Part shown: positions 1,318 to 32,389 of the stretch, one piece after another | Position numbering within the stretch: position 1 is the first letter of the stretch | Layout: the number at the start of each line of letters is the position of its first letter | NCBI GenBank assembly: GCA_038314665.1 | Contig: GCA_038314665.1_3677.1 | Reading direction: 5' to 3' (one strand) | From: a phage | DNA length: 64,000 nt | The notes under the pieces: generated by a model | The model's input: the letters and a program-made list of their open reading frames with translations, nothing else | The model's database searches: none | Told to the model about the DNA's origin: nothing | Position numbers and translations under genes: made by a program

Positions 1318-2034
1318 ATGGCTACGCTTTATAGTGATATATTAATGGACCCACAGACAGGCGATTTGGCGATAGACAAAGGTCTTGAGTTGATAGATTC
1401 AAACCAGGTAAGTCTGCGCCAGCGCTTGTGGATGAGGTTTAATACGTGGAAGGGGAGCTGGTACTTTGACGAGTTGTTTGGCTTCCCTTATATGGACTTT
1501 CTCAGTAAGAAGGTCATGAAGACTGTTCTTGATAACAAGATTATGGAAGTGGCAAGACAAGAGCCGGATGTGCTAAACATCATAAACTTCCAGTCTACCA
1601 TGGATCGAAGATCGAGAACATACCAAGCGTTCTTTGAAGTTGTTACCAAAGAGAACGAGATTGTAAGGCTGGCTTTCGTAGGTCTTGATCAGTTTACCTA
1701 CCCACAGCCTGATTCTGGGACAACCTCTCTCTGTGATGATGAAGGTTGGATTAAGTGGGCTAATAAACTGTACTATCTGATCAACTTCAGATTGCCTAGA
1801 ACCGGAGATGCCACATGGTGGAACCAGTATGCTGGTCCTGAGATGGAAAACCCGATCCCTGTAGGCTCTCTGTTGACTCAGGATAAAGATCTGCTGATGA
1901 CTGAGGCAGAACAAACCATTAACCGCAATACCTGGACGCTTGCTCCAGATGAGCGCGAATACTCTGGTGTTATTGCTACCTCCAATGATGAGGCTATTGC
2001 CAACCAGTCTGGTCGTGCTATTGATGTTAACTAA
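1318..2034 (+). CDS. baseplate wedge protein, gp25/W-like (tentative)
   Basis: N-terminal GDLAIDKGLELIDSNQVSLRQRLWMRFNTWKGSWYFDELFGFPY resembles gp25/GPW-type signature; 238 aa. Confidence 0.4.
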   Translation: MATLYSDILMDPQTGDLAIDKGLELIDSNQVSLRQRLWMRFNTWKGSWYFDELFGFPYMDFLSKKVMKTVLDNKIMEVARQEPDVLNIINFQSTMDRRSRTYQAFFEVVTKENEIVRLAFVGLDQFTYPQPDSGTTSLCDDEGWIKWANKLYYLINFRLPRTGDATWWNQYAGPEMENPIPVGSLLTQDKDLLMTEAEQTINRNTWTLAPDEREYSGVIATSNDEAIANQSGRAIDVN

Positions 2035-2043
2035 GGAGAAATC

Positions 2044-2712
2044 ATGGCTGTAGCTTATCCTACAATACCAATTCCAGATCTTGAAGATGCAGAAACAGTC
2101 CTGAGTGATGACTTCTTGGTTGTCAACCAGACTGATGGGACAAGAAAGGCGAAGATTGATGATGTTGTCAACGATCTCAGTATTACTAAAATAATCTATT
2201 TCACAGAGGGTGGTTATCTTAAGAGCAAGAAGGACTTTGCTTATGATCCAGAGACCAAGCGCTACTACACGTGGAACGGGGATTATCCTAAAATAATCCT
2301 CCCAGACTCCACTGTAGAGGGTGCTGGGGGTGTGTCTGCAAAAGCATGGTCTGTTTTTGGTGAGCTTGCTGCAACTTCTTCTGGCAGGATAGTTGATTAC
2401 GGATCTATCGGTGGTCAGCTTGATATGGATCTTGAAGTTGCAGACACCTTTAAAGTTCGACTAACTTCAAATACCACAATCTCTTTTGAAAATCAAACAG
2501 AAGGTCTTGAAGGGGTGGCGAGAACTATAACCGTATGCATTACTCAGACCGCTGGCGGCAACAAAGTCTATTGGCCTGATAATGTTAAATGGGCCTACGG
2601 AAGAGATCCTATCCTAACATTTACAGCTGGTGCAACAGACATTTTCAAGTTGGAAACCTACGACAACGGGTTAACTTGGTACGGAGCACTGATTATCGCA
2701 GGAGCTATCTAA
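2044..2712 (+). CDS. tail fibre/adhesin-like protein with shared N-terminal anchor module
   Basis: N-terminal ~100 aa (DDFLVVNQTDGTRKAKIDDVV..FTEGGYL..FAY) paralogous to N-terminus of fibre 5347..9153. Confidence 0.45.
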   Translation: MAVAYPTIPIPDLEDAETVLSDDFLVVNQTDGTRKAKIDDVVNDLSITKIIYFTEGGYLKSKKDFAYDPETKRYYTWNGDYPKIILPDSTVEGAGGVSAKAWSVFGELAATSSGRIVDYGSIGGQLDMDLEVADTFKVRLTSNTTISFENQTEGLEGVARTITVCITQTAGGNKVYWPDNVKWAYGRDPILTFTAGATDIFKLETYDNGLTWYGALIIAGAI

Positions 2713-2713
2713 G

Positions 2714-5311
2714 ATGCGTATTCAACACAACATTGATAACGTATTTCAGATGATTGAGGGGCACAGGAAGTGCCTCGATAACAACACAGGTATTACCAAC
2801 ACCCCTACACAAAATAAGTTAGTGAACCCTGATGGTCTTATAGCTGCAGGGTGGGCAGGTAATAAGATAAATAATGATTGGGCAATGCATGAGGCCCAAG
2901 CTGTGTTGATTCTGGGGTACATTGAAGCATACAGGGCATCGAAAAGCGATTTCTACCTGGATAGGGCAAAAGATGCTTGGGAAGCTTACAATAGTCATCT
3001 TCTGGGTGCATATGCAGTAGAAAGTAAAATGCAAAGATTGTCCCACTACCCTCTATCCACAGACGGGGTTCCATCGCATGGTGGGTTTAAAGATGTAGTG
3101 GTGTCTTTTACCAATGGTAGAGGAAAAATCCCAGCTGGATCTCCGACATGGGGGGAATATCTGGACAAGGCATTCCAAGCGTATAACGGCGTGTTAGGAA
3201 GAAACACTGTAGACTCTGATGTTTACGGTGGCACAGATGATAACCCAGATTGGACAACATCCGGATTAAGTTGGTGGGTTGAGTGGTATATAGCATGGGA
3301 TGGTAATCGCTATTGGGCTAACGGTAGCATAGCTGATAGTGGTCATACGTCTGTAGAGTTTGGCACAATCCAATTACAAGACAAGGGTGTTACAGGCAAC
3401 CACAAAGTGACCTATTGTGTAAGATTACCTCAAGAGCAGGGTGGATCGGTGATCCCTGCTGGATCCCCTGTAATTGTGAATCCTATAAACGTGGTTGCAG
3501 ACAATCAAGCCCCAGAGTTGGATGGGGAAGAAATGTGGTGTGACGCTTGTTATCAACTCTACACCTTGACAGGTGAGGAAAAGTATTACACCGCGTTTAA
3601 ACAGTCTTACAACAAGTTGCTTAATTTCAGTGATATAAACGCTTACGACAAACTGTTTAGAAAGACCACGTTGATTAAGGCACCATTTACAGATGGTACT
3701 TGTCTTGTTGCAGGAACAGTTCCTGTCACGAGCAGAGACAGTGACGGGTATATCAATTTTAGAATGAACGCACGCCAGCCTTGCGAAATAATTCAAAAAG
3801 GTACCACCTACAAAATAGGCAGAGATGCTGAAATTGTCATGAATTTCGGAGGAGAGGGGGTTCTGTTCCAGCCACATTTCATCCTTAATGATGGCAACAA
3901 TAACAAAAAACAGTACAGGATAGGTGTCCCTTTTGGAGGTGCAGAGGTAACAGAAATAGTTGCCAAGGTTACCGATTTCGTAGAGGTAGTTGGTAAAGAC
4001 GGTAATCCGTACCTCTTACCTAAAGAGGAAAACATTGCCGTGAGCGGTGGTGCCAGTGTTAGTATGCAGTACGATACTGACATTTACAACCACTCTGACA
4101 ACTTCACCCGTTGTAATATAGCAAGAGGCAAAGTAACTTTCAATTTTGGAAGAGAGATTTCTTTAAACTCAGTAACTTATCGATCAGATGATGAGATGGT
4201 AAGGGTCAAATTTCTTGACAAAGATAGGTGGTTATGGTATGCTGATCTATATGCCACTAATGGACAATGGATAACAGAAACTCTTACTCTAGGAGATTTC
4301 AAACTAGATCCGACACAACCTCATCACACTGAAGAAGAGATTAAACCTTTCTTTGCTAATCCTAAGGGACTCACCTCTGTAGATTTCAGCCTAAGCGACA
4401 GACAGATAGGTAATGGCTTGTTTGATCTATATTGCGTCAACACACTGCCGCAATTCTATATTGCAGATAGGGATGCTTATCTAATCTGGTTTAGCGTATG
4501 GATGGCAAGCAAGACAGAATCAACCGCTAAGGTTGGTGATTGCTATGTCAGAAACTACAAGCAAGGTGCATACAGGCACACTCCTGGTGTGTTCCCTGCC
4601 GGAAAGGTGATAGATAAGGAAAATTACCTCTTGGAGGAAAAGCCAAATTGGCCATATCCAGGTATGCAATACCCAGCAGTCTACTGTATGGGTGCAGAAA
4701 ACATAGATCGCTATAGGTTGTCAAATACAATAGGCTTTCTGTATGACGCTCAAGTCTGGTATAATAACACATTTAAGACAGAGGGTCCAGTCGCCTCACG
4801 TTATGTATGGCAGAGAGGTAATGAAGGATTAACTGGTTGGTGGGAGATGGTAGATAACTCTAAGCTCCAGTCAAGATCTTTTGTTGCTGCGTGCCGCACA
4901 ATCTATGAGCTCAAGAAACATAAAGAACCTGTTGATGAAAGATTATTCCTGTTCTGCCAGAAATGGGCATGGTTCCTCAACAGATTCCAGTCATCTCATT
5001 CAGGAAATCTACCTACAGACTTTAACACCTCTGGGGGATATTCTTATCAAGACAGAGGAGACAGGATGTGGGTGGTAGGTGAATGGCTTGCAGGCTGCTG
5101 CTGGCTAGGTCTGTGCGGGTATTCAGAGACAATACCACAAATAGATATTGTTGTAGAAGCCTGTGTGAAGCTACTGCAAAAGCACCACTTCATTAATGGT
5201 GATAATGTTTTAAACGGCTGCTGGGCAGTTTCTGATCCGGTGGGCTATCACTCTGGCGAAATCCTTCGCGGTCTGGGACTTTATGCTCAATACCGTGGAT
5301 TGTACCTTTAA
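2714..5311 (+). CDS. large virion protein, possible tail-associated enzyme/tailspike
   Basis: 865-aa ORF inside fibre cluster, start overlaps upstream stop; Trp/Tyr-rich, no clear catalytic motif identified. Confidence 0.35.
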   Translation: MRIQHNIDNVFQMIEGHRKCLDNNTGITNTPTQNKLVNPDGLIAAGWAGNKINNDWAMHEAQAVLILGYIEAYRASKSDFYLDRAKDAWEAYNSHLLGAYAVESKMQRLSHYPLSTDGVPSHGGFKDVVVSFTNGRGKIPAGSPTWGEYLDKAFQAYNGVLGRNTVDSDVYGGTDDNPDWTTSGLSWWVEWYIAWDGNRYWANGSIADSGHTSVEFGTIQLQDKGVTGNHKVTYCVRLPQEQGGSVIPAGSPVIVNPINVVADNQAPELDGEEMWCDACYQLYTLTGEEKYYTAFKQSYNKLLNFSDINAYDKLFRKTTLIKAPFTDGTCLVAGTVPVTSRDSDGYINFRMNARQPCEIIQKGTTYKIGRDAEIVMNFGGEGVLFQPHFILNDGNNNKKQYRIGVPFGGAEVTEIVAKVTDFVEVVGKDGNPYLLPKEENIAVSGGASVSMQYDTDIYNHSDNFTRCNIARGKVTFNFGREISLNSVTYRSDDEMVRVKFLDKDRWLWYADLYATNGQWITETLTLGDFKLDPTQPHHTEEEIKPFFANPKGLTSVDFSLSDRQIGNGLFDLYCVNTLPQFYIADRDAYLIWFSVWMASKTESTAKVGDCYVRNYKQGAYRHTPGVFPAGKVIDKENYLLEEKPNWPYPGMQYPAVYCMGAENIDRYRLSNTIGFLYDAQVWYNNTFKTEGPVASRYVWQRGNEGLTGWWEMVDNSKLQSRSFVAACRTIYELKKHKEPVDERLFLFCQKWAWFLNRFQSSHSGNLPTDFNTSGGYSYQDRGDRMWVVGEWLAGCCWLGLCGYSETIPQIDIVVEACVKLLQKHHFINGDNVLNGCWAVSDPVGYHSGEILRGLGLYAQYRGLYL

Positions 5312-5315
5312 CATA

Positions 5316-5335
5316 GGGGGCTGTTTGCCCCCTTT
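5316..5335 (+). terminator. weak hairpin terminator-like element
   Basis: gggggc-tgttt-gccccc stem-loop then short T run, between stop 5311 and RBS of 5347. Confidence 0.3.
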
Positions 5336-5346
5336 CAGGAGAAAGA

Positions 5347-8300
5347 ATGGCTGATATTAAAGTTGTCAGAATTGAATCTCTTCCTGCCACTACCGCAGTG
5401 ACAGAGGATGATTACCTGGTTGTTCAACAACCAGACCTGACCCGTCGTGTAAAAATTGGCGATGTTGTCCATGTGGATGGGACTGTTTCTCATGTAATCT
5501 CCTTTAAGGAAGGTGGTAAGTTAAACGGCCCAATGGATTTTGCCTACTTCGAAGAGGAAGACCTCTACCTGCGTTGGAAAGGCGAATTTCCACACACTGT
5601 TCCTGCACTGTCTTCACCGTACTCCGATGGTGGGATTACTGACGCTGCATGGATGGTATATACTGATCCGTCCTTAAGGGAGGAGCTGGAATCTACCATT
5701 GGCGCATCCATGATTATGACAGCTGAAGGTCAGTCTGTCCAGGATGTAATGGATGTTACAGTTAAGACCGCCAACGATGCTAAAGCACTTGCACAGCGGG
5801 TAGATTTTGGTACCGTGCACACTGTAGGCGATGTTATTCACCTTGTCAATTTTGTTGGCCCTGCAGTTATTGAAGAGGGAAGAACTACTAACTACCCTTC
5901 TGTAGCAGCTGGTGAAAAATTCCTGAACGGTGTGGTATCTCGTCGTGATACTACAACTGTTGATGGTATTTTCCGTGGCGCTACCTCCGGAGCTATGTAC
6001 ACCATTGCAGTAACCAACGGTGTAGCAACAACAAAAAGAATAGCACTTCGTGATGAATTTAAACGCCTAGAGGCAAACAACCCAACAAGAACCATTATTC
6101 GTGCTGGTGATGATGTAAACACAGCCGGGTACTTGCAGCTTGATGCAACAGGTCGTTGGGGCATGTGGAACCAACAGACATCTTCATGGCAACCTCTTGC
6201 TGTAGAGCAAGGTGGTACAGGTGCCAGAGATGCCGCAGGTGCACGTATTAATTTAGGAACTTTTTATAAACAACGTGCAGCCCTTGAGGCAAATTTCAAT
6301 ATCAATAATTTGACGGGTAATCAGGATGGTGTATACTACCAGCCGATGACTGCTAATGCAACTGAGGAAAATGGCTACCCTGCAGGTTCTGGTGCTGGTC
6401 ACTTAATTGTTTGGCAGAACAATGCTAACGGCGGTGCAGGTTGTCGTCAGGAATACTATCCATTCTCTAACGTAGATGTTTGGTATTTGAGAACCTATCA
6501 GGCCAACACAAATCAGTGGACTGCATGGCAGCCTATGGTCAGACCTCGTAACGATGACACCTTCAGATCTCATATCGGCCTTGGTAAAAACAACTCACCA
6601 GCATTCGGGCACCTTTACTTAGCTCAATACTCTGGAGATGTTAAATCGGCCTCAGGTATTGTACACGGTGACAAGTATAATCGAGAAGGTACTCTTGAGC
6701 ATGGATATCGTATCTACTCTGAAGTAAGAAACGATAATAAAGCTTGGTTAACAATACACCTCCATAAGGGAGCTACTGGTGCAGAAACACATAGATACCT
6801 CGGATTCAGAGAGGATGGTGTTTTAGATTGTCCTAAATATATGCAGGTTGGCGATCTAAATGGTCAGCTGGCAAACTGGGGACTGGCAGAGTGGATCCGT
6901 AGTTCAGGCGCTGAAAGAGGTTTCTGGGGTTCCAAGAAAGCAGCCAAAATGGTTATCTGGGACGGAGGCATGGATGAGTCTGGTAACGGCACTCTGGAAT
7001 GGGGTGTTTATAACAACCGGAAGGCCAAGTGGGAACCTTTACCTCAAGCCGCAGGTGGTACTGGAGCTACAACTCTGGCAGAAGCTCAAAACCTGTTTAG
7101 AATACCTATGGCAGCAGGTGTAAAAGATTTCTTAACACTGCCAAGAACAGCAGCCATGGTGGATGGTAAATATTACCCTGTTATTGTAAGAACAGATCCG
7201 TACTATGCACCAGCTGTTGGGACAGATATTACAATAGTTACAAGATCCTCTTCTGGCAACGATCCTATGAACTGCGCAACACTCCAGTGTCATTACAGAA
7301 CTGGTGGTTGGACAGACCGTGGAGACTCTTTTACTGGTGTTATAAACTTCTACCAGAACGAAAGAGCAATACTTGGTTGTGTTGCTCCTACTCGCGGAAA
7401 ACAAGAGTATGTTGCTTTTTATGTAGAGGCCAGAGCTTTCCCAGTAAGCGTATATACAAGCCGAAACGTGCTTGAGGTATTTACCAGGGAAAATGACTGG
7501 CAGGTAGGGAATGTAACTGACAATCAGGACGGTGTTAAGTTTTGTGCTCCGTTAGAGTCAGCAGACTTAAATCTTGCGATAAAGGGTGATAATGTAACTA
7601 ACACCAGATCTCTTGCGGAGTTTAAAGGAACATCAGGTTTTTACACAGGCGGTGGTACTCAGTGGCACTACATCGGCACACCTGAACGCTATGCGGTCAT
7701 GAGTAAAATGACCATGCCTAAAGTTGAGCTGTGGGCAGATGGTATCGACTACCTATGCCCTGGTAGCCAGACCACAAGGAAAGCACTGTTCTCTAATGCT
7801 GGATTCCAGGCAGCATCTGAAGGTACAGAGGACTTAATTAACAACACATTTACTTCCAAATGCGGCAAGGGTGCAGGTCTGAAAGGCCAGTCAGAGTTCA
7901 GGTCTACCCCAGAGGCTGGACAGGTAATTGTCAGAGATGTTGTTGGTTCTGCACATAAATTCTTTAACTTCAACAAAGACGGCACATTCTACCCTCCTGG
8001 AGGTTATGTTTGCCAGACAGGTGCGGATTGGAACAATCAGTTTGGTAACACGAACCCGTCAAAAATAATGGCTGGTAATGTTAACGGACCTGAAGGTTCC
8101 ATGGTTGTAGCAGGGTTGTCGGTCGGTTTTTCTGGAAATTATGCATTCCAGATGGCTGGTCGTCTTGATCAGTTATACACTAGGTCTATTGAGGGTGGCA
8201 ATCACAGAGCGTGGAACAAGGTAATCCAACACCGTGGTCAGGGCCTAGGGACAAACGATCTTAATGACTACAAGGGCGATAGAGAGGGTTTTTATCATCA

Positions 8301-9153
8301 AGAGGCCAACTCTCAAGCCACACCTGAGAGAAACTACCCATGCGGACAGGCAGGTACTCTCCTTGTCTATAGAAACTATGCTAACGTTCCAGAGAGTTGC
8401 GTACAGGAATATACAACATATCTTGGAGAAAAATTCCTGCGTTATGGAACAACGATAGGTGGTGTTTTCACATGGGGCCATTGGCAGCAGCTTGGTGGTA
8501 AGGGTATCACTTTAAAAACTCAAGGGTCCAATCTTGAACCTGAGTTCACAATACACACAGGTGGCGGTACTGATGTTACCAACACTTCAAACATGCCTTC
8601 TAATACAGGCAGGTTGTACTATTGGGGTAATGGCGCGGATAGGAAGAATGTGCTGGAGTTCCAGATAAGTGATGACTCAACAGCCGCCAGCTGGGTATTC
8701 CACTGTGGAGCTAAGACAGATGAGGCTAAATCAAGATATTTTGCTGTCAACGGCACGGTAGAATGTACCACTGTTAGCCAAAGTTCCGATAGAGACCTGA
8801 AGGATAATATAGAGGTCATACCTAACGCTCTGGAAGCAATTAGAAAGATGAAAGGCTATACCTACACCTTGAAAGAGAATGGTATGCCTTATGCAGGCGT
8901 GATTGCTCAAGAGGTTATGGAAGCATTGCCAGAGGCAGTAGGATCTTTCGTGAAAAGGAAGGAAATAGAAGGTCCTACTCAAGACGGTACTCCTCTGATG
9001 ACCGAGGAAAGGTTCTATAACGTTGACTACGCAGCCGTAACAGGCTTGCTTGTCCAGGTTTGCAGGGAGCAGGATGATAAAATAACTGCCCTTGAGGAGC
9101 AGGTTAAAAAATTAACGGAGGTTGTTACTGGGTTGCAAGAGAAACTGAAGTAA
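5347..9153 (+). CDS. long tail fibre protein with C-terminal intramolecular chaperone (peptidase S74-like)
   Basis: 1268 aa; N-terminal anchor module shared with 2044..2712; Gly-rich central region; C-terminus SSDRDLKDNIEVIPNALEAIRKMKGYTYTLKENG..VDYAAVTGLLVQ..coiled coil matches autoproteolytic chaperone signature; RBS AGGAGAAAG. Confidence 0.75.
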   Translation: MADIKVVRIESLPATTAVTEDDYLVVQQPDLTRRVKIGDVVHVDGTVSHVISFKEGGKLNGPMDFAYFEEEDLYLRWKGEFPHTVPALSSPYSDGGITDAAWMVYTDPSLREELESTIGASMIMTAEGQSVQDVMDVTVKTANDAKALAQRVDFGTVHTVGDVIHLVNFVGPAVIEEGRTTNYPSVAAGEKFLNGVVSRRDTTTVDGIFRGATSGAMYTIAVTNGVATTKRIALRDEFKRLEANNPTRTIIRAGDDVNTAGYLQLDATGRWGMWNQQTSSWQPLAVEQGGTGARDAAGARINLGTFYKQRAALEANFNINNLTGNQDGVYYQPMTANATEENGYPAGSGAGHLIVWQNNANGGAGCRQEYYPFSNVDVWYLRTYQANTNQWTAWQPMVRPRNDDTFRSHIGLGKNNSPAFGHLYLAQYSGDVKSASGIVHGDKYNREGTLEHGYRIYSEVRNDNKAWLTIHLHKGATGAETHRYLGFREDGVLDCPKYMQVGDLNGQLANWGLAEWIRSSGAERGFWGSKKAAKMVIWDGGMDESGNGTLEWGVYNNRKAKWEPLPQAAGGTGATTLAEAQNLFRIPMAAGVKDFLTLPRTAAMVDGKYYPVIVRTDPYYAPAVGTDITIVTRSSSGNDPMNCATLQCHYRTGGWTDRGDSFTGVINFYQNERAILGCVAPTRGKQEYVAFYVEARAFPVSVYTSRNVLEVFTRENDWQVGNVTDNQDGVKFCAPLESADLNLAIKGDNVTNTRSLAEFKGTSGFYTGGGTQWHYIGTPERYAVMSKMTMPKVELWADGIDYLCPGSQTTRKALFSNAGFQAASEGTEDLINNTFTSKCGKGAGLKGQSEFRSTPEAGQVIVRDVVGSAHKFFNFNKDGTFYPPGGYVCQTGADWNNQFGNTNPSKIMAGNVNGPEGSMVVAGLSVGFSGNYAFQMAGRLDQLYTRSIEGGNHRAWNKVIQHRGQGLGTNDLNDYKGDREGFYHQEANSQATPERNYPCGQAGTLLVYRNYANVPESCVQEYTTYLGEKFLRYGTTIGGVFTWGHWQQLGGKGITLKTQGSNLEPEFTIHTGGGTDVTNTSNMPSNTGRLYYWGNGADRKNVLEFQISDDSTAASWVFHCGAKTDEAKSRYFAVNGTVECTTVSQSSDRDLKDNIEVIPNALEAIRKMKGYTYTLKENGMPYAGVIAQEVMEALPEAVGSFVKRKEIEGPTQDGTPLMTEERFYNVDYAAVTGLLVQVCREQDDKITALEEQVKKLTEVVTGLQEKLK
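8782..9153 (+). other. intramolecular chaperone / autoproteolysis domain of fibre 5347..9153
   Basis: S-S-D-R-D-L-K-D-N motif begins at codon 1146 (nt 8782), followed by conserved GYTY and C-terminal coiled coil. Confidence 0.55.
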
Positions 9154-9160: not shown

Positions 9161-9188
9161 GCCCTCGCTTCGGCGGGGGCTTTTTGTT
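9161..9188 (+). terminator. rho-independent terminator
   Basis: 8-bp GC stem gccctcgc / gcgggggc with TTCG tetraloop followed by tttttgtttg, 8 nt after stop of fibre gene. Confidence 0.6.
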
Positions 9189-9252: not shown

Positions 9253-9843
9253 ATGTTTTTATGGGAAAGGCCTAGATACCTTCCAGATATTAGATTGGAG
9301 CTGCTGGCAGATATTGTTACGTTTAAAAGTCCGTTTACAGGTAAAACGCAAAAAGTAACCTATGCCACACCTAACTGGAAAGGCACTTTGACGGTTTCCA
9401 ATATCAGCGAGTCACAGTTGCTAGAGCTTAAGAGCTTTGTTGATCAGGTGTATAAAGATGGGAACATATTTCTCATTAAAACTTACGGTCACTCAGTAAC
9501 AGCTAATGAGCCAATCGCCCTTGGGCCTACTGGTAACGACGATTTTTTGAAGACGGTTGGGTGGGAGCCAAACAGAGACATAGCTAGAGCTGGGGATAAA
9601 ATATCTGTCAATGATGAATTGAAAGTGGTAACAGCTCCAGTACGCAGCGATGGTGTTGGGTCTGCTGTTATAAGCATATCTCCAAGACTTAGAAAACCTA
9701 TTGCCGCAGGGGATACTATGAAGATAATAACTCAATCCCCAAAGGGTAGGTTTCATATCAGAGATATTTATAAAATTAAGCAAAAAGTCGATGCTATGCA
9801 AAAAGGTGATAATATAGTTATCAACTTCTTTGAGGATTTCTAA
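9253..9843 (+). CDS. tail/baseplate assembly protein (minor tail protein), tentative
   Basis: 196-aa ORF with RBS GGAGG, first gene after terminator, heads operon ending in the 1199-aa fibre. Confidence 0.35.
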   Translation: MFLWERPRYLPDIRLELLADIVTFKSPFTGKTQKVTYATPNWKGTLTVSNISESQLLELKSFVDQVYKDGNIFLIKTYGHSVTANEPIALGPTGNDDFLKTVGWEPNRDIARAGDKISVNDELKVVTAPVRSDGVGSAVISISPRLRKPIAAGDTMKIITQSPKGRFHIRDIYKIKQKVDAMQKGDNIVINFFEDF

Positions 9844-10396
9844 GATGATTAGAGCGCCATTAGATAATTTATTTCTTGAGAAGCTGGAGCTTGATGGTGT
9901 TGAGATCTTAATTGCTGCAAAGCTAGAGCTACCGACAGGGACTGTCAGGGTGTGCTCAGGCACTGGTGTTGTAGTAATTGAGGGTCAACATTTTATAGGG
10001 ATAGGTGGATCAGCAACATTAACTGCTGTGTCTGAGAAAGATGCCACCAACTTCGGATCTGTGGTAGCAACATTGAACGGGTTTGATCCTAAGTATGTTG
10101 GTGATCTACTGAAGACGGAGTATTCTGGTTGTCGTGCCACGTTGTACATTACCGCTATGGAGAATGGTCTGCCTGTTACAACTAATGGTTTGTTTGACGG
10201 CCTTATAACAGATATGGCTATTCAGACAGGTGAGAACAGTGCTTTGTCCATATCCATCTCTTCCATCTTCAACAGTTGGTTAAGAGGTTTTCCTTATCGG
10301 TACACGGAGGAAAGCCACAGCTCAAGAAACGATAATGACAGATTTTTTAAATATGTGGATCAGGTGGCGAGCCGCCCGATCATTTGGGAGGTTTAA
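9830..10396 (+). CDS. tail/baseplate assembly protein, tentative
   Basis: 188-aa ORF overlapping neighbours by a few nt (coupled). Confidence 0.35.
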   Translation: MRISKMIRAPLDNLFLEKLELDGVEILIAAKLELPTGTVRVCSGTGVVVIEGQHFIGIGGSATLTAVSEKDATNFGSVVATLNGFDPKYVGDLLKTEYSGCRATLYITAMENGLPVTTNGLFDGLITDMAIQTGENSALSISISSIFNSWLRGFPYRYTEESHSSRNDNDRFFKYVDQVASRPIIWEV

Positions 10397-10821
10397 TGAG
10401 CACACATCCTCGTTTAGTAGATTGGCAAGAAAGATTGTGGAAAGTGTTTGACGAAGAGGCCACCATACCTTTTGAATGGGGATTCCACGATTGTTGCACC
10501 TTTGCAGCCAAGTGCGTTGATGCCCAGTACGGAACAGATTTTCTTTCTAACTTCGAAGGAACGTATAAAACAGAGTTGGAAAGCAAAAGATGGTGCATGC
10601 TCCGTTTCAAAACCACACACCTGCCTACTATTTTTGATCTCTTTATGACTCGGCTGGATACTCATAAACAGGTTCAGCGTGGAGATATTGTCATTTTCGA
10701 AGGTCTGAACGGGCTCACCGCTGGTGTGTTCTGGAACAACCAGATTTGGGCGAAAGGTGATAAAGGGGTCTTTATGTTCGACATGAAAGATTCTATCGTT
10801 GTTGATGTCTGGAGGTATTAA
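10384..10821 (+). CDS. tail-associated protein with Cys-His motif (possible NlpC/P60-like), tentative
   Basis: 145 aa; FHDCCTFAAKC motif; start overlaps upstream gene, stop overlaps next ATG. Confidence 0.3.
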   Translation: MGGLMSTHPRLVDWQERLWKVFDEEATIPFEWGFHDCCTFAAKCVDAQYGTDFLSNFEGTYKTELESKRWCMLRFKTTHLPTIFDLFMTRLDTHKQVQRGDIVIFEGLNGLTAGVFWNNQIWAKGDKGVFMFDMKDSIVVDVWRY

Positions 10822-13800
10822 TGCCAATTGCAATGATTGATAACATCGTTGCTTCTGCAAGATCTTCAAGTTATGACTGGAACGCATCCAAGGCAGCTCT
10901 GGCTGACAGCCTGAACACTGTTACCACCAGAACTCTGGATAAGATTTTTGAGGGCAACAAATCTTACAGAAGTCAGCAAGATAGACAAAAGCTTCTCAGA
11001 TCTTCTGCTGCACCCTGCTCTGTAGTGTATGGGAAGACACGCACGTCTGGGCTGCTTGCGTTTTTGGAGCAGGACAGAGACAGAACCCTCCATTGTGCCA
11101 TTGTTCTTGCTAATCATCCTCTGGAAGGTATAGAAGACATACTCATCGACGGTAATCCTATTTCCTCGTATGGAGATCTGGTATCGTGGGAGCTACATAA
11201 CGACAGAAAAACATCTGATCCTTTCATGGGTACACACTGCCCATCGTGGTCACCAGATATGATAGGCAGAGGTATCAGTTGGCTGCGTGCCAGCTTCAAG
11301 TTTGACCCCAGTAAGTTTCCTTTTGGGTTGCCAAACGTTACACTGGTCAAGGTTGGTAAAAAATGCTATGACCCCCGCATCAGTAAAGAGGTGTATACCA
11401 ATAACGCGGCCTTGGTGATCCTGGACTATTTAAGAACGTACCTTAAATGTCCTGACGAAACCATCAACTGGGAGTCCTTTAGGGAGGCTGCCAATATATG
11501 CGACGAGGCGGTAAAAAACGCTGACGGAACCAGTGAGCGACGTTACACCATTAACGGTGAGTTTGACATGGATGAGGCCCCAGCAAGTATTATGGCAGAA
11601 ATGCTGAAAGCTTGCGGTGCAGACCTTAGTTATGTTGCTGGTAAGTATGGTTTGCTGGTTGGTGCATACTATGGCCCAGCAACAATGACACTGAGTGAGG
11701 ATTGTGTCTGTGGTGAGGTCAAGATCTATCCGGAAGCCTCCTTTGACAAGAGATCCAACACAATAACTGGCAGATTCACTAGTCCGACCAAAGGGTATTC
11801 TGAAACAGATTTTCCATCAGTGTTTGTCCCAGAGTGGATAGAGAAGGATGGAGAAAGAAAGATAATTGATATAGACTATCGCTTTGTTACCAGTCCTTAT
11901 CAAGCTCAGCGTGTTTCTGCAATCTTCTTAAGACGTGCTAGAGCTGGCAGGATTATTGAAGTCACCTGCAATATGCGAGGTTTTAAATTTAAACCTGGCC
12001 GTTACGTTACAATGGACCTTCCAAGTATTGGTATAGTAGGCCAAGAAATGAGGGTTCTTGAATGGGAGTTCACCAAAAAGGGCGGTGTCAAGGTAAAACT
12101 TCGTCAAGATGCTAAAGAGTGGAATGATGCCACAGGGCAACTTCCGGATTCTGGTGATGTAGATATTCCGATATCTCCATCTGGTGTAGCTCAACCGCAA
12201 AACTTCAGATATTCCGTTCTCCAAGCCGGGGAAGTAACTCACGGTGTTTTGGCTTGGGACAACGTTGGAACTTACGCTCAAAATATTGTGCAGGTAAGAA
12301 AGAACGGAGAGATTGTTTGGACAGCACAGACAGTTGAGCAGTTTGTCCGAGTAGAAGGCTTGACCAAAGGATCATACACAGCAACCGTGGTTGCAACATC
12401 TTATAAAGGTGGTGTATCTCCAGAAGCGTACTGCGAGTTCAACATTCAGGCACCTGAAGCTCCTGTTTCTGTGGAAGTTAAGCAGGGATACTTTGCTATT
12501 ACCCTGATCCCGCACAGCAGAGACTTGGCTAGTGTAAGCACCCAGTACGACTTTTGGACATCTGGGATGACAAGATTGCCAGATACCAGTGATGTAACAG
12601 TTACTTCAAAAGCCACTCGTATGGGTGTTGGTTCAACTTGGACATCTGAAGGTCTGCAGAACGATAAGATTTATTACTGGTATATCAGGACAACAAATGC
12701 TTTTGGTTCATCTGCTTTTGTGGAGTGTGCAGCCCACTGTTACACATCCATAGAAGATCTTATGCCACAGATTGATGCTGAGTTCAAAAAGACAGAGACT
12801 TATAAAGAGCTTACCGCCAATCTTGATAATGCAGTCAAGGAAATGGATAAAAATGTTGGTGCAGTCAATGACCGTGTTACTAGCATTTTTGAAGAGCTTG
12901 GGGATACAATAGAGGGTGTTGTCAGAGAGACGACAGAAAAATTTACAGGGGTTAATGGAGAAATTTCTGCCCTTAACAGTAAGCTGGTAGCAGCTCAGCA
13001 ATCCTTTGACGATAAACTTGCAGCAGAGTCTGGTAGGCTTGGGTCACTAATCGAGACAACAAATAGATCAACCGTTGATCTTGTTAATCGTAAAACTCAA
13101 GCATTGAGTGAGCAAATAACTGCAACTCAAGGTACTCTGCGGGAAGAGTTGAAGAACACTGAGAGCAAACTTAACTCCTCTATTCAAGAAACCAACAAGG
13201 CAACAACCGATCTGCTAAGTAAGACAACGGAAGCTATTAAGCAGGATCTGGTGGCAGCTACAGGGAAGATCACCAAGCTGGAAGATGATGTGCAGAAAGA
13301 GGTTGCCAATCTGCAAGCATCTATTCAAGAAACTAATAGTACAACAGTTGATCTTGTTAATAATACAGCCACAGCGATCCGTCAAGAACTTACCTCTGCA
13401 AAACAAGAAATTGTTGACGAAATGGGTAATATTGATGAGCTCAGGGCTACAGTATCTAATACCTCTAAAGCTGTAACAACACTTGAGGGTAAAATAGATG
13501 CTCAGTGGGGAGCTAAGATTCAGGTTGACAGCCATGGTAATAAATATGTGGCAGGTATCCAGCTGGGCATGGAGGGGTCTGGAGGACAAGTTCAATCATA
13601 CTTCATGGTTAGTGCAAACAACTTTGCGGTATATAACCCCGGAAATGGAACAGCAACCCTTGCTTTCGCAATCAAGAACAACCAAGCGTTCTTGAAAGAC
13701 GCTTTTATAGAGAATGGCACGATCTCCTCTGCCAAGATCGCACAAGAAATTTCGTCAAACAACTACGATGGCAACGGGTACCATAAATACGGTTGGTATA

Positions 13801-14420
13801 TTAACAAGAACGGGCATGCCCAATTTATGGATGTGTGGGTGAAAGGCAACATCAACGCCAGTTCTGGTAACTTCACAGGGGCAGTTAATGCCACTAGTGG
13901 TACCTTCCGTGGAGATGTTTATGCCAATAATGGTAGCTTTAGAGGCACCATAGATGCAACCGGAGGTACATTCCGTGGTCGTGTAGAAGCTTCTGTTATC
14001 CGTGCTAACCAGTTCGAAGGTGCAATTGTTGCACACAGGACTTACGGAGATTGTGCTCCAGTGCATAACTCCCAGCAGAGGGTTTGCCGTTGGAGGTGGA
14101 GATACGTAGATAACGTTTCAGGTCAAGGTAAGAACGTAACATTCTTCTTTAAACTGAACGGTACTCGTGCCAACTCCCAACTAAATGCGTGGATAGCTGG
14201 TCATCAACTCCTTGCTGGCAAGAAGTACGGGAACGACAACGATGGCATGTGTGCAATTGGGATAACAGGTCTAGGTGAACAAACTATAGACATTATTATT
14301 GAAATCTACACCCCGTGGTCAACGTCAAACGTGACAGGTGTCACAATCTCCTGTCCCACTGTGATCGTTAGTCGTTCTAACTCAAGCTTCCAGGGACCTT
14401 GGAACGAGTCTCACGACTAA
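10821..14420 (+). CDS. large tail fibre / host-specificity protein with internal coiled-coil repeats
   Basis: 1199 aa; central repeated units (IQETNKATTDLLSKTTEAIKQDL / IQETNSTTVDLVNNTATAIRQEL); Gly/Asn-rich C-terminal repeats GNFTGAVNATSGTFRGDVYANNGSFRGTIDATGGTFRG. Confidence 0.5.
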   Translation: MPIAMIDNIVASARSSSYDWNASKAALADSLNTVTTRTLDKIFEGNKSYRSQQDRQKLLRSSAAPCSVVYGKTRTSGLLAFLEQDRDRTLHCAIVLANHPLEGIEDILIDGNPISSYGDLVSWELHNDRKTSDPFMGTHCPSWSPDMIGRGISWLRASFKFDPSKFPFGLPNVTLVKVGKKCYDPRISKEVYTNNAALVILDYLRTYLKCPDETINWESFREAANICDEAVKNADGTSERRYTINGEFDMDEAPASIMAEMLKACGADLSYVAGKYGLLVGAYYGPATMTLSEDCVCGEVKIYPEASFDKRSNTITGRFTSPTKGYSETDFPSVFVPEWIEKDGERKIIDIDYRFVTSPYQAQRVSAIFLRRARAGRIIEVTCNMRGFKFKPGRYVTMDLPSIGIVGQEMRVLEWEFTKKGGVKVKLRQDAKEWNDATGQLPDSGDVDIPISPSGVAQPQNFRYSVLQAGEVTHGVLAWDNVGTYAQNIVQVRKNGEIVWTAQTVEQFVRVEGLTKGSYTATVVATSYKGGVSPEAYCEFNIQAPEAPVSVEVKQGYFAITLIPHSRDLASVSTQYDFWTSGMTRLPDTSDVTVTSKATRMGVGSTWTSEGLQNDKIYYWYIRTTNAFGSSAFVECAAHCYTSIEDLMPQIDAEFKKTETYKELTANLDNAVKEMDKNVGAVNDRVTSIFEELGDTIEGVVRETTEKFTGVNGEISALNSKLVAAQQSFDDKLAAESGRLGSLIETTNRSTVDLVNRKTQALSEQITATQGTLREELKNTESKLNSSIQETNKATTDLLSKTTEAIKQDLVAATGKITKLEDDVQKEVANLQASIQETNSTTVDLVNNTATAIRQELTSAKQEIVDEMGNIDELRATVSNTSKAVTTLEGKIDAQWGAKIQVDSHGNKYVAGIQLGMEGSGGQVQSYFMVSANNFAVYNPGNGTATLAFAIKNNQAFLKDAFIENGTISSAKIAQEISSNNYDGNGYHKYGWYINKNGHAQFMDVWVKGNINASSGNFTGAVNATSGTFRGDVYANNGSFRGTIDATGGTFRGRVEASVIRANQFEGAIVAHRTYGDCAPVHNSQQRVCRWRWRYVDNVSGQGKNVTFFFKLNGTRANSQLNAWIAGHQLLAGKKYGNDNDGMCAIGITGLGEQTIDIIIEIYTPWSTSNVTGVTISCPTVIVSRSNSSFQGPWNESHD

Positions 14421-16027: not shown

Positions 16028-16714
16028 ATGGCAGAGATTAAGTCGGATGTTAACCACATCCACACTCTGCCAGATTTTGTTCAGGGGGGTCTTGACTACC
16101 TGCCTGGAGATTTTCTGGCTGAGAAGGTTAATTTAGTCACATTCTTAACCGTGTACCTTAAAAGGTTGGAGGATGTTGATAAGATGCTGGTAGGTTTGGC
16201 TGAAGGAAGATTGCTTAACAATGCCAGCGGAAGATACCTTGACGAAGTTGGTAATCAACTCGGTATTCTTAGGAATGGACTTTCAGATGCTGATTTTCGT
16301 GCCACACTAATTATTCAGCAGGCCGCAGCATCAAGGGGCGGGACTCGCGAAGATGTCATCTCCACCTTGCGACAATTGTTCGGAAGAGACAATTTCGATA
16401 CGTGGAAAGGAGACAACTTCAGGTTTGACATAAATATTAGAAAAACTTGCTTTGACATATTGCAGTCTATTGATCAGATCTTAGACATGCTACCACTGCC
16501 TTGTCATTTGCGTCTTACAGAATCGCAAGGGCAAGCTTTTGGTTTTGAAGGTGACTCTACAGCTCTTGGCTTCGGATCAGTGTGGGAAGAAAGCCAATTC
16601 GGAGTTGGTGGGCTGGCTACTTTGCTGTATGTTCCTGACGTAAGACCTGATTGGGACACCACAACCATTTATTGTGAAAGTATTACAGTAAACGCAACTA
16701 GACAGGAGGGTTAA
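16028..16714 (+). CDS. baseplate wedge protein (gpI/gp48-like), tentative
   Basis: 228 aa directly after J-like gene; RGGTREDVISTLRQLFG resembles tail-protein-I C-terminal signature. Confidence 0.4.
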   Translation: MAEIKSDVNHIHTLPDFVQGGLDYLPGDFLAEKVNLVTFLTVYLKRLEDVDKMLVGLAEGRLLNNASGRYLDEVGNQLGILRNGLSDADFRATLIIQQAAASRGGTREDVISTLRQLFGRDNFDTWKGDNFRFDINIRKTCFDILQSIDQILDMLPLPCHLRLTESQGQAFGFEGDSTALGFGSVWEESQFGVGGLATLLYVPDVRPDWDTTTIYCESITVNATRQEG

Positions 16715-18786
16715 TGGCAACAGCTGTTTTTAAACCTTACCGTGATTACTCTACAATGGCTGCACGGTTTCATTACCGCACAGTTCAGGATACTGCCGTT
16801 CCTGGTAGGGATTATGATCATGTTGAGGGCGATATAACTATCCCAGTTGGGGCAACCAGTATTGAGATCCCAGTGGAAATTGTTGACAAATTACCCAACA
16901 GGTTACCAAGAAGCTTCTTTATGGAGTTTTCATCAAAATCCCAAGGGGTGATGATTGGGACACAAAGGGCGAAATGTACAATAGTTTCAGATGAGAATCT
17001 TGACAGGATATCTTGGGATACTGTCGAGGAGAGAATGTTTCACCCAAGATACTGGGTTACAACCACCCAGCAGACTGAAAGTACCTGTATTGTTGCAGAT
17101 GACAACTGTTGTATTAACCGTTTAGTGTCAAGAACATATGGAGGTATGGCTGGGTGCATTTGGGAAACAGTTGACAAGTATGACCATTTCGGTATTGGGT
17201 TTGATGATCACTATGAGATGAGAAACACCAAGCTTTGGTTCAGAATGTCAATAACCAATGCCAGCAACTTCTCCACTCCTGAAAAGATGATTATGACTGT
17301 AGACCTTGTTGATGGTACAATCATCTATGTTCCTTTAGCTCAATATGCTGTCAGCATCTCAGAGGATAAGAATGTTGCAGAGATTCATATTGATTTCGAG
17401 GACTGCGTCGGGATGGATCAGAACAACAACATGATGGGTGTTGATCCTCGACAGGTGAGAAGAATTTTAATACCGCTCATGCCTAAAGACTGGGTAAGTA
17501 ATAGCACAGACCCGAGAACGGAAAATGTAGAGTGTGAGTTGCGCCTAGATCTGCTTCAGCCAGACACGGGCTGGAAAATGATGCAACTTAACAATATTCA
17601 GGTTAAAGAGCACGACGTTGGGATCTGCACCGCATATGACGATATGTGGAACGTATCTCCTTTAAGGGTGTTGAACAATATCAAGCGTCTGGGCTATACC
17701 GGAACCATAAACCATTATGTTGGTATGAGTCATTATTATGACTACACATGGTCAGGAACCCAATGGTCTATAAACAGAACAGGAGCGCTAAACGCTGCAG
17801 CTTATAAATGGCATGATGATTTTATGTACAATGCCAAACGACATAACTTCGACGTTATGCAGTCTGTAAGTTTTGAGCTTTACAGCGATGCCTGCCCGTT
17901 GGAATGGACCCAAAGAGACTGGAATGATAACTACGCTAAAACAGGATATACACCTTGTAGCTACCTCCTGTCTCCAACCATTGAAGAGGGTATGAATTTC
18001 CTTACTGCAGTATTTAAGAATTTTGCATCAGCCGCTATGAGAAACAACCTGCCAGTGATTATGCAGGTTGGTGAACCGTGGTGGTGGTACAATACCGATA
18101 CTCGCAGACCTTGCATTTATGATTACCCTACAAAACAGGCGTTTTATGATGAGACAGGCGAGTATGCCTTAGATATTGGGACTATTGACGATCCTAAAAC
18201 TGGCGGTGTTTACGACAAGTATGTAGCATTTTGTCGTGGTAAGCTTGGCGCTCGTATTGCGGCTATTTCAAAGGCAATAAAGGCACACGCTGCATCAGCT
18301 CAGATGACAGCTCTGCTGTTTTTCCCAACCATTATGGAAACCGAGCTTACGCAAAAGCTGAACCTTGCTGACCAATATAAAAAAGAAGCAGGTACTCTTG
18401 ATTTCTTCTGCACTGAGTGCTACGATTGGGTGATGCAGGGAGGTATTGAAAAGGCAAAAGAGTCTGTAAACATACCTATCGTTAAGTTAGGTTGGCAACC
18501 GTCTGAAATACAATACCTTGCAGGGTTCGTTCCTAGTAAAGAGCTTGCTCCGGTATATGGATACGACCCAACTAGGAATTACCAAGAATTTTTATGGAGA
18601 TGTATTTGCGGAAACATGGCAACTATAGAGTATAGATACCCTGAGGTAAAACAGTATGTGTGGGCATACCCGCAAGTAATGTCTGACAGCATCACTGTTA
18701 CCGCTAGAGATTCTACCGTGCTTCATATGGGGCAGGTTGCTCTGAAAGGGTATGTAGAAGATGTTGTCCCGCCAGACTTCTCATAA
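16714..18786 (+). CDS. virion structural protein (tail-associated), unknown function
   Basis: 690 aa, ATGA overlap with upstream gene, upstream of fibre cassette. Confidence 0.35.
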   Translation: MATAVFKPYRDYSTMAARFHYRTVQDTAVPGRDYDHVEGDITIPVGATSIEIPVEIVDKLPNRLPRSFFMEFSSKSQGVMIGTQRAKCTIVSDENLDRISWDTVEERMFHPRYWVTTTQQTESTCIVADDNCCINRLVSRTYGGMAGCIWETVDKYDHFGIGFDDHYEMRNTKLWFRMSITNASNFSTPEKMIMTVDLVDGTIIYVPLAQYAVSISEDKNVAEIHIDFEDCVGMDQNNNMMGVDPRQVRRILIPLMPKDWVSNSTDPRTENVECELRLDLLQPDTGWKMMQLNNIQVKEHDVGICTAYDDMWNVSPLRVLNNIKRLGYTGTINHYVGMSHYYDYTWSGTQWSINRTGALNAAAYKWHDDFMYNAKRHNFDVMQSVSFELYSDACPLEWTQRDWNDNYAKTGYTPCSYLLSPTIEEGMNFLTAVFKNFASAAMRNNLPVIMQVGEPWWWYNTDTRRPCIYDYPTKQAFYDETGEYALDIGTIDDPKTGGVYDKYVAFCRGKLGARIAAISKAIKAHAASAQMTALLFFPTIMETELTQKLNLADQYKKEAGTLDFFCTECYDWVMQGGIEKAKESVNIPIVKLGWQPSEIQYLAGFVPSKELAPVYGYDPTRNYQEFLWRCICGNMATIEYRYPEVKQYVWAYPQVMSDSITVTARDSTVLHMGQVALKGYVEDVVPPDFS

Positions 18787-18798: not shown

Positions 18799-19839
18799 AT
18801 GTCAAAACCTAGTTTTCCATTAGAGATTTGGGCAGAGGAGGATCAGGTTCTGCCTAACACCCACAGACAGAACAGGCTACGCCCGATTGATGATTTGTGG
18901 AGAAAAGGTTGGGATCTTGGTCAAAAGCCCTCATGTGAAGAACTTAACTATATTTTCAATATGCTCGGAACTTGGGCAAAATACATTGCTGACGAGCAGA
19001 TCCCCGCTCAAGAAGGTCGTTATCTGGTACGTGATAATAACTTGAGTGATCTTTTGAACATCCCTGTTGCCCGTAGAAACCTTGGGATTATTACTAAGGA
19101 AGAGGCAGACGCCAGGTATGTAAAAGTTACAGGTGATACAATGACAGGCCCCTTGGGTTTGCAACGTATCAACTTTAAAGCTGCCGAGACAGATAAGGCT
19201 TGGATAGAGACAACTATTGGCCCAGATAAGACAACTCTCGACTTTGGGTTAAGTGATAATACCGGGTCGTTTGATGATGGTGGTACATCTACAGTAGATG
19301 CGTTCCGTTGGAGATTCCAGCCAACTCAGCCGGATATTAATCCAGAGTTCACTTTGATGTACCTTAACGCGATCACGGCTAACCGTGCGATGTTGAAAGT
19401 GGTAGGCAATGTTGAAGTTGTCGATAACATGAGGTGCAATAACCTTACTATCAGCAATACAGCAACATTCACCAACTGTAATGTGGCCAGTCAGTTGACG
19501 GCTGGGTCAGTATATGTTAATGGTGGTGCAAGTTGTGACAGTATGGTTGTAAGAAGCCAGCACTGTGTTGTCGGTAACAGAAATGTGGTGCGCTCTGTGA
19601 ATGGGGTGACGGCTAACGGTAACGGTGATGTAACAATCACTATCCCGCAGACAGGTGTGCAAGACATCAGAATCGGTGCAAGACTTGTTGACGGCGTTTC
19701 TGAATCTCCAATTCGCAACGGCTACGTTGTCACAGGTTGGCATTTCGGTGACAAAAAAGAGATGCGTGGTTCAACCTACTGGGCAGGACCTTTACAAAAA
19801 CTTGTAAATGGTCAATGGATCACTGTTAATTATGCATAG
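18799..19839 (+). CDS. tail fibre protein, paralog 1
   Basis: 346 aa; N-terminus and C-terminus (..KLVNGQWITVNYA) paralogous to 20851..21897; followed by Tfa-like chaperone. Confidence 0.55.
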   Translation: MSKPSFPLEIWAEEDQVLPNTHRQNRLRPIDDLWRKGWDLGQKPSCEELNYIFNMLGTWAKYIADEQIPAQEGRYLVRDNNLSDLLNIPVARRNLGIITKEEADARYVKVTGDTMTGPLGLQRINFKAAETDKAWIETTIGPDKTTLDFGLSDNTGSFDDGGTSTVDAFRWRFQPTQPDINPEFTLMYLNAITANRAMLKVVGNVEVVDNMRCNNLTISNTATFTNCNVASQLTAGSVYVNGGASCDSMVVRSQHCVVGNRNVVRSVNGVTANGNGDVTITIPQTGVQDIRIGARLVDGVSESPIRNGYVVTGWHFGDKKEMRGSTYWAGPLQKLVNGQWITVNYA

Positions 19840-20850: not shown

Positions 20851-21897
20851 GTGATGACTAAACCAGTTATCTCTCTTGATATTTGGGCCAATCAGGATGT
20901 TGTGCTTGAAAATACGGGAGAATTGAATAAGTCCCAACCAAAAAAAGAAGAGAGACTGAAAGGTTGGGATATGACACAAAGAGTGGCATGTGAAGTTGTT
21001 AACTTTGAACTTCACATGCTTTCTGCGTGGTTAAAGCATTTAACAGAAGATGTTGTCCCAGGATGGGATAATAGATTCTTAAGGGTCACTAATAATCTGG
21101 CAGACGTTCCAGACAAAGCTGCTGCACGTCAAGTTCTCAATGTATACTCGCCTGAAGAAATGGATGACCTTTATGTTGACAAGGCTGGAGACACAATGAT
21201 CCAGACTCAAACTTTAGGTCTTCAAAGAATCGAGTTTGCATCCGCGTCAACAGACAATGCGGCGATATACACCACCATAACTTCAGACAAGACGATGATG
21301 GATTTCTGGATTATGGACAACATCGGTGGTGCTGACGGCACAGACCTTGATGATCCCTCTCACCAAATAGACGGTTTCCGTTGGAGATTTCAACCTTCTG
21401 GTGGGCAGCCTGTGTTTTCAGCTATGAAGCTCAATGCTATAACTGCCAACCGTGCAAGACTGGCTATCCAAGGAAATCTTGAATGCAACGACGCAAAAAG
21501 TTCCTCTACAAATGCCAATGCAGCTACTATACCAAGAGCCACTGTTAATGGACAACAATCCTGTGGAAGCGCTCAAATAGGTGGAAGAGTTGATTGTAAC
21601 GATGAAACCGTCAGGGGCCAATATGCAACAGTTGGTGGAAGAAACGTGGTCCGCAGGGTAAATGGTAACAGCGCAGACGGTATTGGTAACCTTACTATCC
21701 CTATGCCCAGCAGAGGGGTTGATGATGTGAGGATAGCAAACCGTTTCAAAACCACCTACAGAGAGTCAAGAGTCTACCCTGGACATGTGATGTGCTCGGG
21801 TAACTACGCTTATAAACACCCTTATCAAGGTGATTACTGGACAGGTGCTATCCAAAAACTTGTAAATGGTCAATGGATCACTATATCTTATGCTTAA
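20851..21897 (+). CDS. tail fibre protein, paralog 2
   Basis: 348 aa; shares N-terminal (P..S/PL.IWA..D.VL.NT..KGWD..Q) and C-terminal (KLVNGQWITISYA) blocks with 18799..19839. Confidence 0.55.
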   Translation: MMTKPVISLDIWANQDVVLENTGELNKSQPKKEERLKGWDMTQRVACEVVNFELHMLSAWLKHLTEDVVPGWDNRFLRVTNNLADVPDKAAARQVLNVYSPEEMDDLYVDKAGDTMIQTQTLGLQRIEFASASTDNAAIYTTITSDKTMMDFWIMDNIGGADGTDLDDPSHQIDGFRWRFQPSGGQPVFSAMKLNAITANRARLAIQGNLECNDAKSSSTNANAATIPRATVNGQQSCGSAQIGGRVDCNDETVRGQYATVGGRNVVRRVNGNSADGIGNLTIPMPSRGVDDVRIANRFKTTYRESRVYPGHVMCSGNYAYKHPYQGDYWTGAIQKLVNGQWITISYA

Positions 21898-31762: not shown

Positions 31763-31820
31763 CTCAGTCTCTCCTGTTGTATTGTTGGTAGGTGTATGAA
31801 TACCTTATAACTAACCTTTT

Positions 31821-32387: not shown

Positions 32388-32389
32388 GA

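Follow-up and report, generated by a model that had tools for sequence, protein, structure and literature searches.

A two-part N-terminal module shared by a long S74 fiber and a small putative connector protein of an rV5-like Escherichia phage

We analyzed a 64,000-nucleotide (nt) stretch of phage DNA (GenBank assembly GCA_038314665.1, contig GCA_038314665.1_3677.1; hereafter the window), in which a protein of 222 amino acids (aa) and a long fiber of 1268 aa open with the same N-terminal segment of about 100 residues. This segment consists of 2 parts, and the reading we consider probable, at somewhat better than even chances, is that it is an attachment module, with a short plug borne both by the fiber and by the 222-aa protein acting as a connector, the two holding separate or branched positions on the virion. 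The window belongs to a Vequintavirus and covers the baseplate and tail-fiber cluster of an rV5-like Escherichia coli myovirus: over its first 12 kb, identity is 99.5% to Escherichia phage vB_EcoM-Pr121LW and ~94% (DNA) to rV5 and the BASEL Vequintavirus isolates. By length and description, the 222-aa protein corresponds to rV5 gp43 and the long fiber to gp41 (~1270 aa), and by gene order the 865-aa protein encoded between them corresponds to gp42. All 3 rV5 proteins have been found in virions by mass spectrometry (PMC3606486). In the BASEL phage Bas58, they are labeled "sialidase domain protein" (222 aa), "lateral tail fiber protein" (1268 aa), and "lateral tail fiber protein with glycosidase domains" (865 aa).

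Both open reading frames (ORFs) were confirmed on the plus strand at 2044..2712 and 5347..9153. BLASTP aligned residues 8-105 of the 222-aa protein with residues 7-105 of the 1268-aa protein at 39% identity and 55% positives with one gap (E=1e-18), and no further significant high-scoring segment pair was found between the 2 proteins. Comparison of the N-termini with phmmer gave 58-62 bits; for 2000 shuffled versions of the partner N-terminus, the score did not rise above 7.3 bits. A first-pass annotation of this DNA had claimed about 100 shared N-terminal residues followed by unrelated distal parts, and both observations were confirmed. The module occurs in none of the other six-frame ORFs of the window (324 in all). 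The Tail_spike_N family (PF18668, cut-off 25 bits) was identified in each of them, at residues 51-104 of the 222-aa protein (40.4 bits) and residues 46-103 of the 1268-aa protein (40.9 bits).

A HMMER profile of both N-termini had 578 matches among 1.84 billion representative proteins, and it was this exhaustive search that revealed the division of the module into Part A and Part B; word-indexed homologue searches gave only close orthologues. Matches to Part A (profile positions 1 to ~48) begin only at residues 1-6 of their targets and follow the motif [VI]-x-[IV]-x-[DE]-L-x(8-10)-D-x-L-[VI]-V-x-Q-x-D-x-T-[RK]-[RK], with carriers found only in the group of rV5, PVP-SE1, Mydovirus, phi92, and phAPEC8-like phages. 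Part B (positions ~50-110, the Pfam domain) was matched at positions 48-430 of hundreds of tailspikes, including those of T7-like, Jersey-like, Ackermannviridae, and other phages. Both its sequence and its fold identify Part B as the D2-like head domain of the CBA120 tailspike proteins (TSPs) TSP1, TSP3, and TSP4 and of G7C gp63.1; in a test for the fold of the CBA120 TSP head domain, that fold was found in the Tail_spike_N region. A profile search of the PDB with Part A returned nothing significant, the top match being crAss001 gp22 (E=1.4). Single-sequence AlphaFold prediction of the 222-aa protein was useless, with a predicted local distance difference test (pLDDT) score of 34, and a model was made from a multiple sequence alignment of 17 sequences. 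Part A had low pLDDT in the monomer model, as would be expected of a segment that becomes ordered only in the trimer or on its partner.

Part B is dispensable, because phi92 gp140 and gp143 do without it. In gp140 (157 aa), Part A is fused straight to the C-terminal domain of the 222-aa-type protein, and the endosialidase gp143 likewise opens with Part A, gp140 and gp143 being 39% identical over 38 aa. In CBA120, it is D1 and not D2 that docks on the XD3 platform (PMC8825819). Because CBA120 docks through D1 and phi92 does without Part B, the Pfam-recognizable half of the module is not likely to be the docking surface, and Part A appears as the putative docking element. Very improbable, in our judgment, is that the shared N-terminus serves as a trimerization or folding nucleus, or as a neck, with attachment elsewhere. 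Such a role would suit the occurrence of Part B as a generic head domain in many unrelated tail types, and deletion of N-terminal residues does abolish trimerization of CBA120 TSP4-N (PMC8825819). However, Part A is limited to one baseplate lineage, and PhiTE, with the same core baseplate, has neither such appendages nor Part A; the fiber already owns a trimerization chaperone at its C-terminus, and a strict residue-1 position with 100% conservation against a variable shaft is typical of attachment ends.

The bodies behind Part A include the S74 fiber, a colanidase, an endosialidase, and Klebsiella spikes. The fiber-type N-terminus heads proteins of 617, 827, 988, 1481, and 1599 aa, in which distal parts are deleted or replaced. 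In Seunavirus, the complete module of Parts A and B heads the colanidase body, and the same body in phi92 (gp150) sits on another N-terminus. Between the long fiber of the window and that of Bas58, residues 1-100 are 100% identical, residues 700-900 83-84%, and the chaperone region 98-99%; no internal repeats were detected in the long fiber by self-BLAST at E<1e-3. The number of Part A copies per genome is 0, 1, 2, or 3. PhiTE encodes zero Part A proteins, the phi92-like phage ESCO32 has an empty gp143 slot and keeps Part A only in its gp140 homologue (PMC10269720), and Klebsiella Mydovirus VIK251 encodes 3 proteins starting with Part A (591, 889, and 278 aa). The combination of a constant attachment end and an interchangeable body supports the central point of the first-pass inference, that of a common docking module: it is portable, always placed at residue 1, confined to one baseplate lineage, joined to unrelated bodies, and conserved where the fiber body varies. 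The likeness drawn there to multi-specificity phages is also right in kind, with an attachment module that is portable and a phage that bears several appendages. In both claims, the components that are wrong or unproven are the 2 adhesins and their same baseplate site.

The body of the long fiber ends in the S74-type chaperone named in the first-pass annotation, and that assignment stands: Peptidase_S74 (PF13884) was identified at residues 1147-1198 with 55.4 bits (cut-off 22). The S-S-D-R site reads S1146-S1147-D-R-D-L-K1152, with the motif S-D-x-x-L-K and a predicted Ser1147/Lys1152 dyad. The spacing from Ser to Lys (+5) is the same as in the annotated maturation site of phi92 gp143, T756|S757-D-G-T-L-K762, a mat_peptide boundary. 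The S74 domain of the 1268-aa fiber is predicted to be autocleaved and shed. Fibers of this class (RBPseg TC12) have been seen at the baseplate wedge of Bas49 and Bas54 with cryo-electron microscopy (cryo-EM), and the peptidase domain of the Bas54 homologue had no density (PMC12143355). Data sets for Bas49 and Bas54 are available as EMD-51868/51869.

The first-pass view of the 222-aa protein as an adhesin was not upheld, its C-terminal domain (C-domain) following the 865-aa family across unrelated phages behind a lineage-specific N-terminus. By tblastn, 515 phage records contain the C-domain and 525 the 865-aa protein encoded next to it, with respective counts of 240 and 243 in Escherichia, 99 and 101 in Salmonella, 58 and 62 in Vibrio, 33 and 33 in Erwinia, 23 and 23 in Campylobacter, and 12 and 12 in Cronobacter; in records present in both samples, the genes are adjacent. 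We inspected the pair in a Rosemountvirus, in a 7-11-like phage of the Grimontviridae, and in a jumbo phage of the SPN3US-like type, and in these lineages the small protein retains the C-domain with a different N-terminus. The tblastn samples further contained each of the 2 genes, separately, in jumbo phages of the 121Q/PBECO4 type and in phages of Erwinia and Vibrio. A metagenomic myophage has the same order of small before large protein, and there the N-terminal 150 residues of the small protein are common to the neighboring fiber (32% identity, E=8e-14). Both genes are absent from Mydovirus and PhiTE. Further, the small and large genes diverge in parallel, the C-domain being 97.7% identical within the genus and ~40% across phages with different hosts, and at the 222/865 junction (TAAGATG) 1 nt separates the upstream stop from the next start. 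The 865-aa protein is 35% identical to phi92 gp141 over 927 aa. It has no recognizable anchor or fiber-like N-terminus, and a Rosetta-stone search for homologues with a fused anchor was negative. No Pfam match (E<=5) or PDB match was found for its family, so that the "glycosidase" label rests on the annotation of others. No XD domain was detectable by sequence in the carrier protein. As a separate observation, another shared N-terminal segment occurs around the pair in Salmonella phage SeKF_80 (7-11-like; locus L008, 12600..13376 and 16318..16758), where residues 25-63 of the small C-domain protein match an ORF of 147 aa located a short way downstream from the large protein (46%, E=4e-8).

An N-terminus that varies by lineage and a C-terminus that stays with a single partner family make the 222-aa protein a probable adaptor or proximal connector rather than an independent adhesin. 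Co-occurrence, adjacency, and coupling of the genes suggest that the C-domain binds the 865-aa protein. Weighing against this reading, the C-domain fold in BFVD ends many small "tail fiber" proteins and collagen-like fibers, and since small fiber proteins end in the same fold, a lectin-like receptor-binding head keeps some probability. The 222-aa protein would then be a miniature receptor-binding protein (RBP), in which an anchor carries a lectin-like beta-sandwich with affinity for a conserved glycan; attachment of the 865-aa protein would be elsewhere, and the genes would travel together through cooperating activities, one binding and the other degrading. We hold this alternative, taken as a whole, to be unlikely but worth keeping in view: the BASEL orthologue is labeled a sialidase domain protein, RBPseg reports lectin-like heads on Vequintavirinae fibers, and the domain always lies at the C-terminus, the place of receptor-binding tips. 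Against this alternative stand the way in which the C-domain accompanies the 865-aa family in unrelated virion types, almost one to one, in adjacent genes, and translationally coupled, the lack of a fiber-like or anchor-like N-terminus in the 865-aa protein itself, the joint loss of the small and large genes, and the levels of C-domain identity within and across hosts given above.

The model of the first-pass annotation placed 2 independent adhesins at one baseplate site, by alternative or mixed occupancy, so that a virion population would have more than one specificity. Homology and portability of the module agree with it, the paralogues are as similar to one another as to their cross-genus counterparts, as expected if both must fit one socket, and in Mydovirus a full-size Part A spike fills the genomic slot of the small protein. 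We nevertheless consider this model improbable, since the C-domain is conserved over E. coli, Salmonella, Vibrio, and Erwinia phages, unlike a host-specific adhesin, and is tied to the 865-aa family. Docking at the same site is likewise not borne out by the presence of both proteins in rV5 virions, by copy numbers that range from 0 to 3 with 3 Part A proteins in one genome, or by the cryo-EM of phi92, in which one fiber is seated on the base of another (PMC13450770). For these reasons, a single contested site is less likely than several positions or a branched layout. In an identity matrix of the paralogous Part A segments, small-type and fiber-type sequences did not form clean clusters, and the matrix therefore does not decide between one site and several.

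For the docking location, we compared the baseplate proteins with those of PhiTE, whose long fiber binds wedge 2 and a helix at the sheath initiator's C-terminal end (PMC11972413). In PhiTE, no gene separates sheath initiator and wedge, and this phage thereby provides a natural control. Wedge proteins are of equal length in all lineages compared, that of the window being 51% identical to its PhiTE counterpart (9cuy_T, E=7e-159). The sheath initiator of the window is 57% identical to that of PhiTE; in an alignment of five lineages, the PhiTE protein has 177 aa and ends in "...TWVNSWK", and those of Part A lineages have 204-238 aa. An extra C-terminal stretch of 27-60 residues is present in every Part A lineage (in the window, residues 173-238, nt 1834..2031). 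Septuagintavirus W70, with Certrevirus-like fibers, has a 20-kDa baseplate protein of phrog_4233, the family of the window's sheath initiator, beside the wedge gene (PMC11370258). The C-terminal extension of the sheath initiator is a candidate docking element for Part A; with so few lineages compared, and those related, it should be taken as a lead and not as a result. Two structures were considered as views of a docked Part A and rejected: the Klebsiella baseplate entry 9f4a, because the Mydovirus Part A spike has no relative in the PDB, and the PhiTE entry 9cuy, because PhiTE carries no Part A proteins.

A bolder combination, to which we give a low probability, would make Part A the universal plug of the rV5/phi92 supergroup on the sheath-initiator extension and, jointly, the C-domain and ~900-aa genes a mobile two-gene cassette. 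If true, the plug would dock beside the "rip-cord" helix used by the PhiTE long fiber, and the occupancy or movement of the appendages would be wired directly to the contraction trigger. The pair would be a previously unrecognized, horizontally mobile appendage cassette that serves myoviruses, jumbo phages, and at least one podovirus-type lineage through lineage-specific adaptor N-termini.

The attachment-module reading that we favor would proceed as follows. Part A (residues 1-48) would be the lineage-specific plug by which a trimer is held on the baseplate periphery in rV5, PVP-SE1, and phi92 myoviruses, with Part B (residues 49-108) as an optional, widespread D2-like tailspike head domain behind it. 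The 1268-aa protein would be a genuine exchangeable receptor-binding fiber that folds with its C-terminal S74 chaperone and then sheds it. The 222-aa connector would hold, through its constant beta-sandwich, the 865-aa and probably glycan-active protein. Both appendages would be on the virion at once, docking separately or branched, without competing for one site.

Table 1. Features of the baseplate and tail-fiber locus in the window
Feature	Position	Strand	Family or basis
Sheath initiator, 238 aa, rV5-type, phi92 gp139 homologue	1318..2034	+	phrog_4233 / phrog_120
222-aa protein, rV5 gp43 orthologue: Part A, Part B, C-terminal beta-sandwich; proposed adaptor/proximal connector	2044..2712	+	
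Part A of the 222-aa protein, residues 1-48	2044..2187	+	Profile matches, alignment
Part B of the 222-aa protein, residues 49-108, Tail_spike_N, D2-like head domain	2188..2367	+	
C-terminal beta-sandwich of the 222-aa protein, residues 112-222; constant part in all lineages	2377..2709	+	
865-aa virion protein, rV5 gp42, phi92 gp141 homologue; proposed cargo/distal partner	2714..5311	+	phrog_2871
Long fiber, 1268 aa, rV5 gp41 orthologue: Part A, Part B, variable shaft, S74 chaperone	5347..9153	+	
Part A of the long fiber, residues 1-48	5347..5490	+	
Part B of the long fiber, residues 49-108, Tail_spike_N	5491..5670	+	
Predicted autocleavage motif S-S-D-R-D-L-K, residues 1146-1152	8782..8802	+	
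S74 intramolecular chaperone domain, ~121 aa, predicted to be released	8785..9153	+	PF13884, E=7.6e-15
Terminator-like hairpin, strong, closing the transcription unit 3' of the long fiber gene	9161..9180	+	

Between the 865-aa gene and the long fiber gene, we identified a GC-rich hairpin (GGGGGCTGTTTGCCCCC, followed by TTT) at 5316..5335. Because of this hairpin and the one at 9161..9180, expression levels of the 222/865 pair and the fiber may differ. A promoter scan remained at background level (19 found, 18.7 expected).

Several other observations were made in the window. A siphovirus-style tail-tip gene set lies at 9253..14420, between the long fiber and the wedge genes of this myovirus, and comprises a Dit-like 196-aa protein, a 188-aa tail protein, a DUF6950 protein (145 aa), and a lambda J-like 1199-aa protein carrying Phage_Tail_Tip and Ig_J domains; the set is missing at the Seunavirus, phi92, and PhiTE loci. 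Two paralogous short tail fibers (18799..19839 and 20851..21897, 43% identity) enclose a lambda gpK-type fiber assembly protein, and phi92 and Seunavirus have 1 short tail fiber each. The fiber at 22185..23930 (581 aa), a homologue of the PhiTE long fiber (31%), is chimeric relative to phi92, its N-terminus resembling that of gp150 (44%) and its C-terminus that of gp151 (48%). At 30000..36000, GC skew becomes negative, coinciding with a block of minus-strand ORFs after the gene of a 1875-aa fiber, and this region marks the end of the structural module. About 18-23 GenBank records titled "Campylobacter phage" (host C. jejuni) share 94-100% identity with rV5-like phages of E. coli, and probably reflect mis-assignment of the host or contamination.

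Phages of the rV5-like and phi92-like groups are common, broad-host-range candidates for therapy. The parts list obtained here, with the putative 48-residue plug Part A, a freely exchangeable slot of the gp41/gp143 type, and the probable gp43 and gp42 unit, is useful for assigning cryo-EM densities, including the unresolved fibers of rV5- and phi92-type phages, and can steer host-range engineering by body swaps behind a fixed N-terminus.

Comparable baseplate structures from cryo-EM are those of PhiTE (Certrevirus) and phi92 (9cuy and 21vq), whose wedges are homologous to that of the window at 51% and 32% identity, respectively, as are the sheath initiator, the short fiber, and the fiber of the 22185..23930 type. 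Unlike the window, PhiTE lacks both Part A proteins and the small/large pair, and in the phi92 maps fibers I and II, gp140, gp141, and gp143 are not resolved, so that neither structure shows Part A docking. In the literature searched, which did not cover the original phi92 paper, no report was found on the N-terminal similarity of gp41 and gp43 or of gp140 and gp143, or on the small/large pair.

TSP1-4 of CBA120 (Kuttervirus) and gp63.1/gp66 of G7C resemble the present case in having several RBPs per virion with exchangeable distal bodies and homologous N-terminal head domains, with Part B matching D2 of TSP1, TSP3, TSP4, and gp63.1. Their docking platforms are T4 gp10-like XD beta-sandwich domains that form part of the tailspike, whereas the putative platform here is a separate 222-aa protein. 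What stands N-terminal to the D2-like domain is D1 in those phages and the ~48-residue Part A here, which has no relationship to D1, XD, or anchors of the T7 type. The docked partner here would be a protein that is large and non-fibrous, and the window's baseplate belongs to the simple Mu/P2/PhiTE type. The T4 gp9/gp10 sockets are functionally like the present arrangement without sequence similarity, although here a single beta-sandwich domain would face a partner of ~865-1157 aa that is not a fiber.

The 1268-aa fiber shares the C-terminal PF13884 domain and the S-D-x-x-x-K motif with the S74 fibers K1F endoNF, phi92 gp143, T5 pb1, and S16 gp37; compared with the endosialidase type, its body is a long multi-domain fiber and its cleavage is predicted only. 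In the Klebsiella podophages KP32 and KP34, a short conserved N-terminal element plugs interchangeable RBPs into a conserved scaffold (Latka et al. 2019, PMC6872550; PMC13352976), and new specificities arise by swaps of distal modules, as here. Those phages have a podovirus tail and other sequences, and their secondary RBP docks on the primary RBP, whereas here 2 to 3 proteins bear the same plug. The principle of a conserved anchor with a variable body is already well established, and the present instance of it is new.

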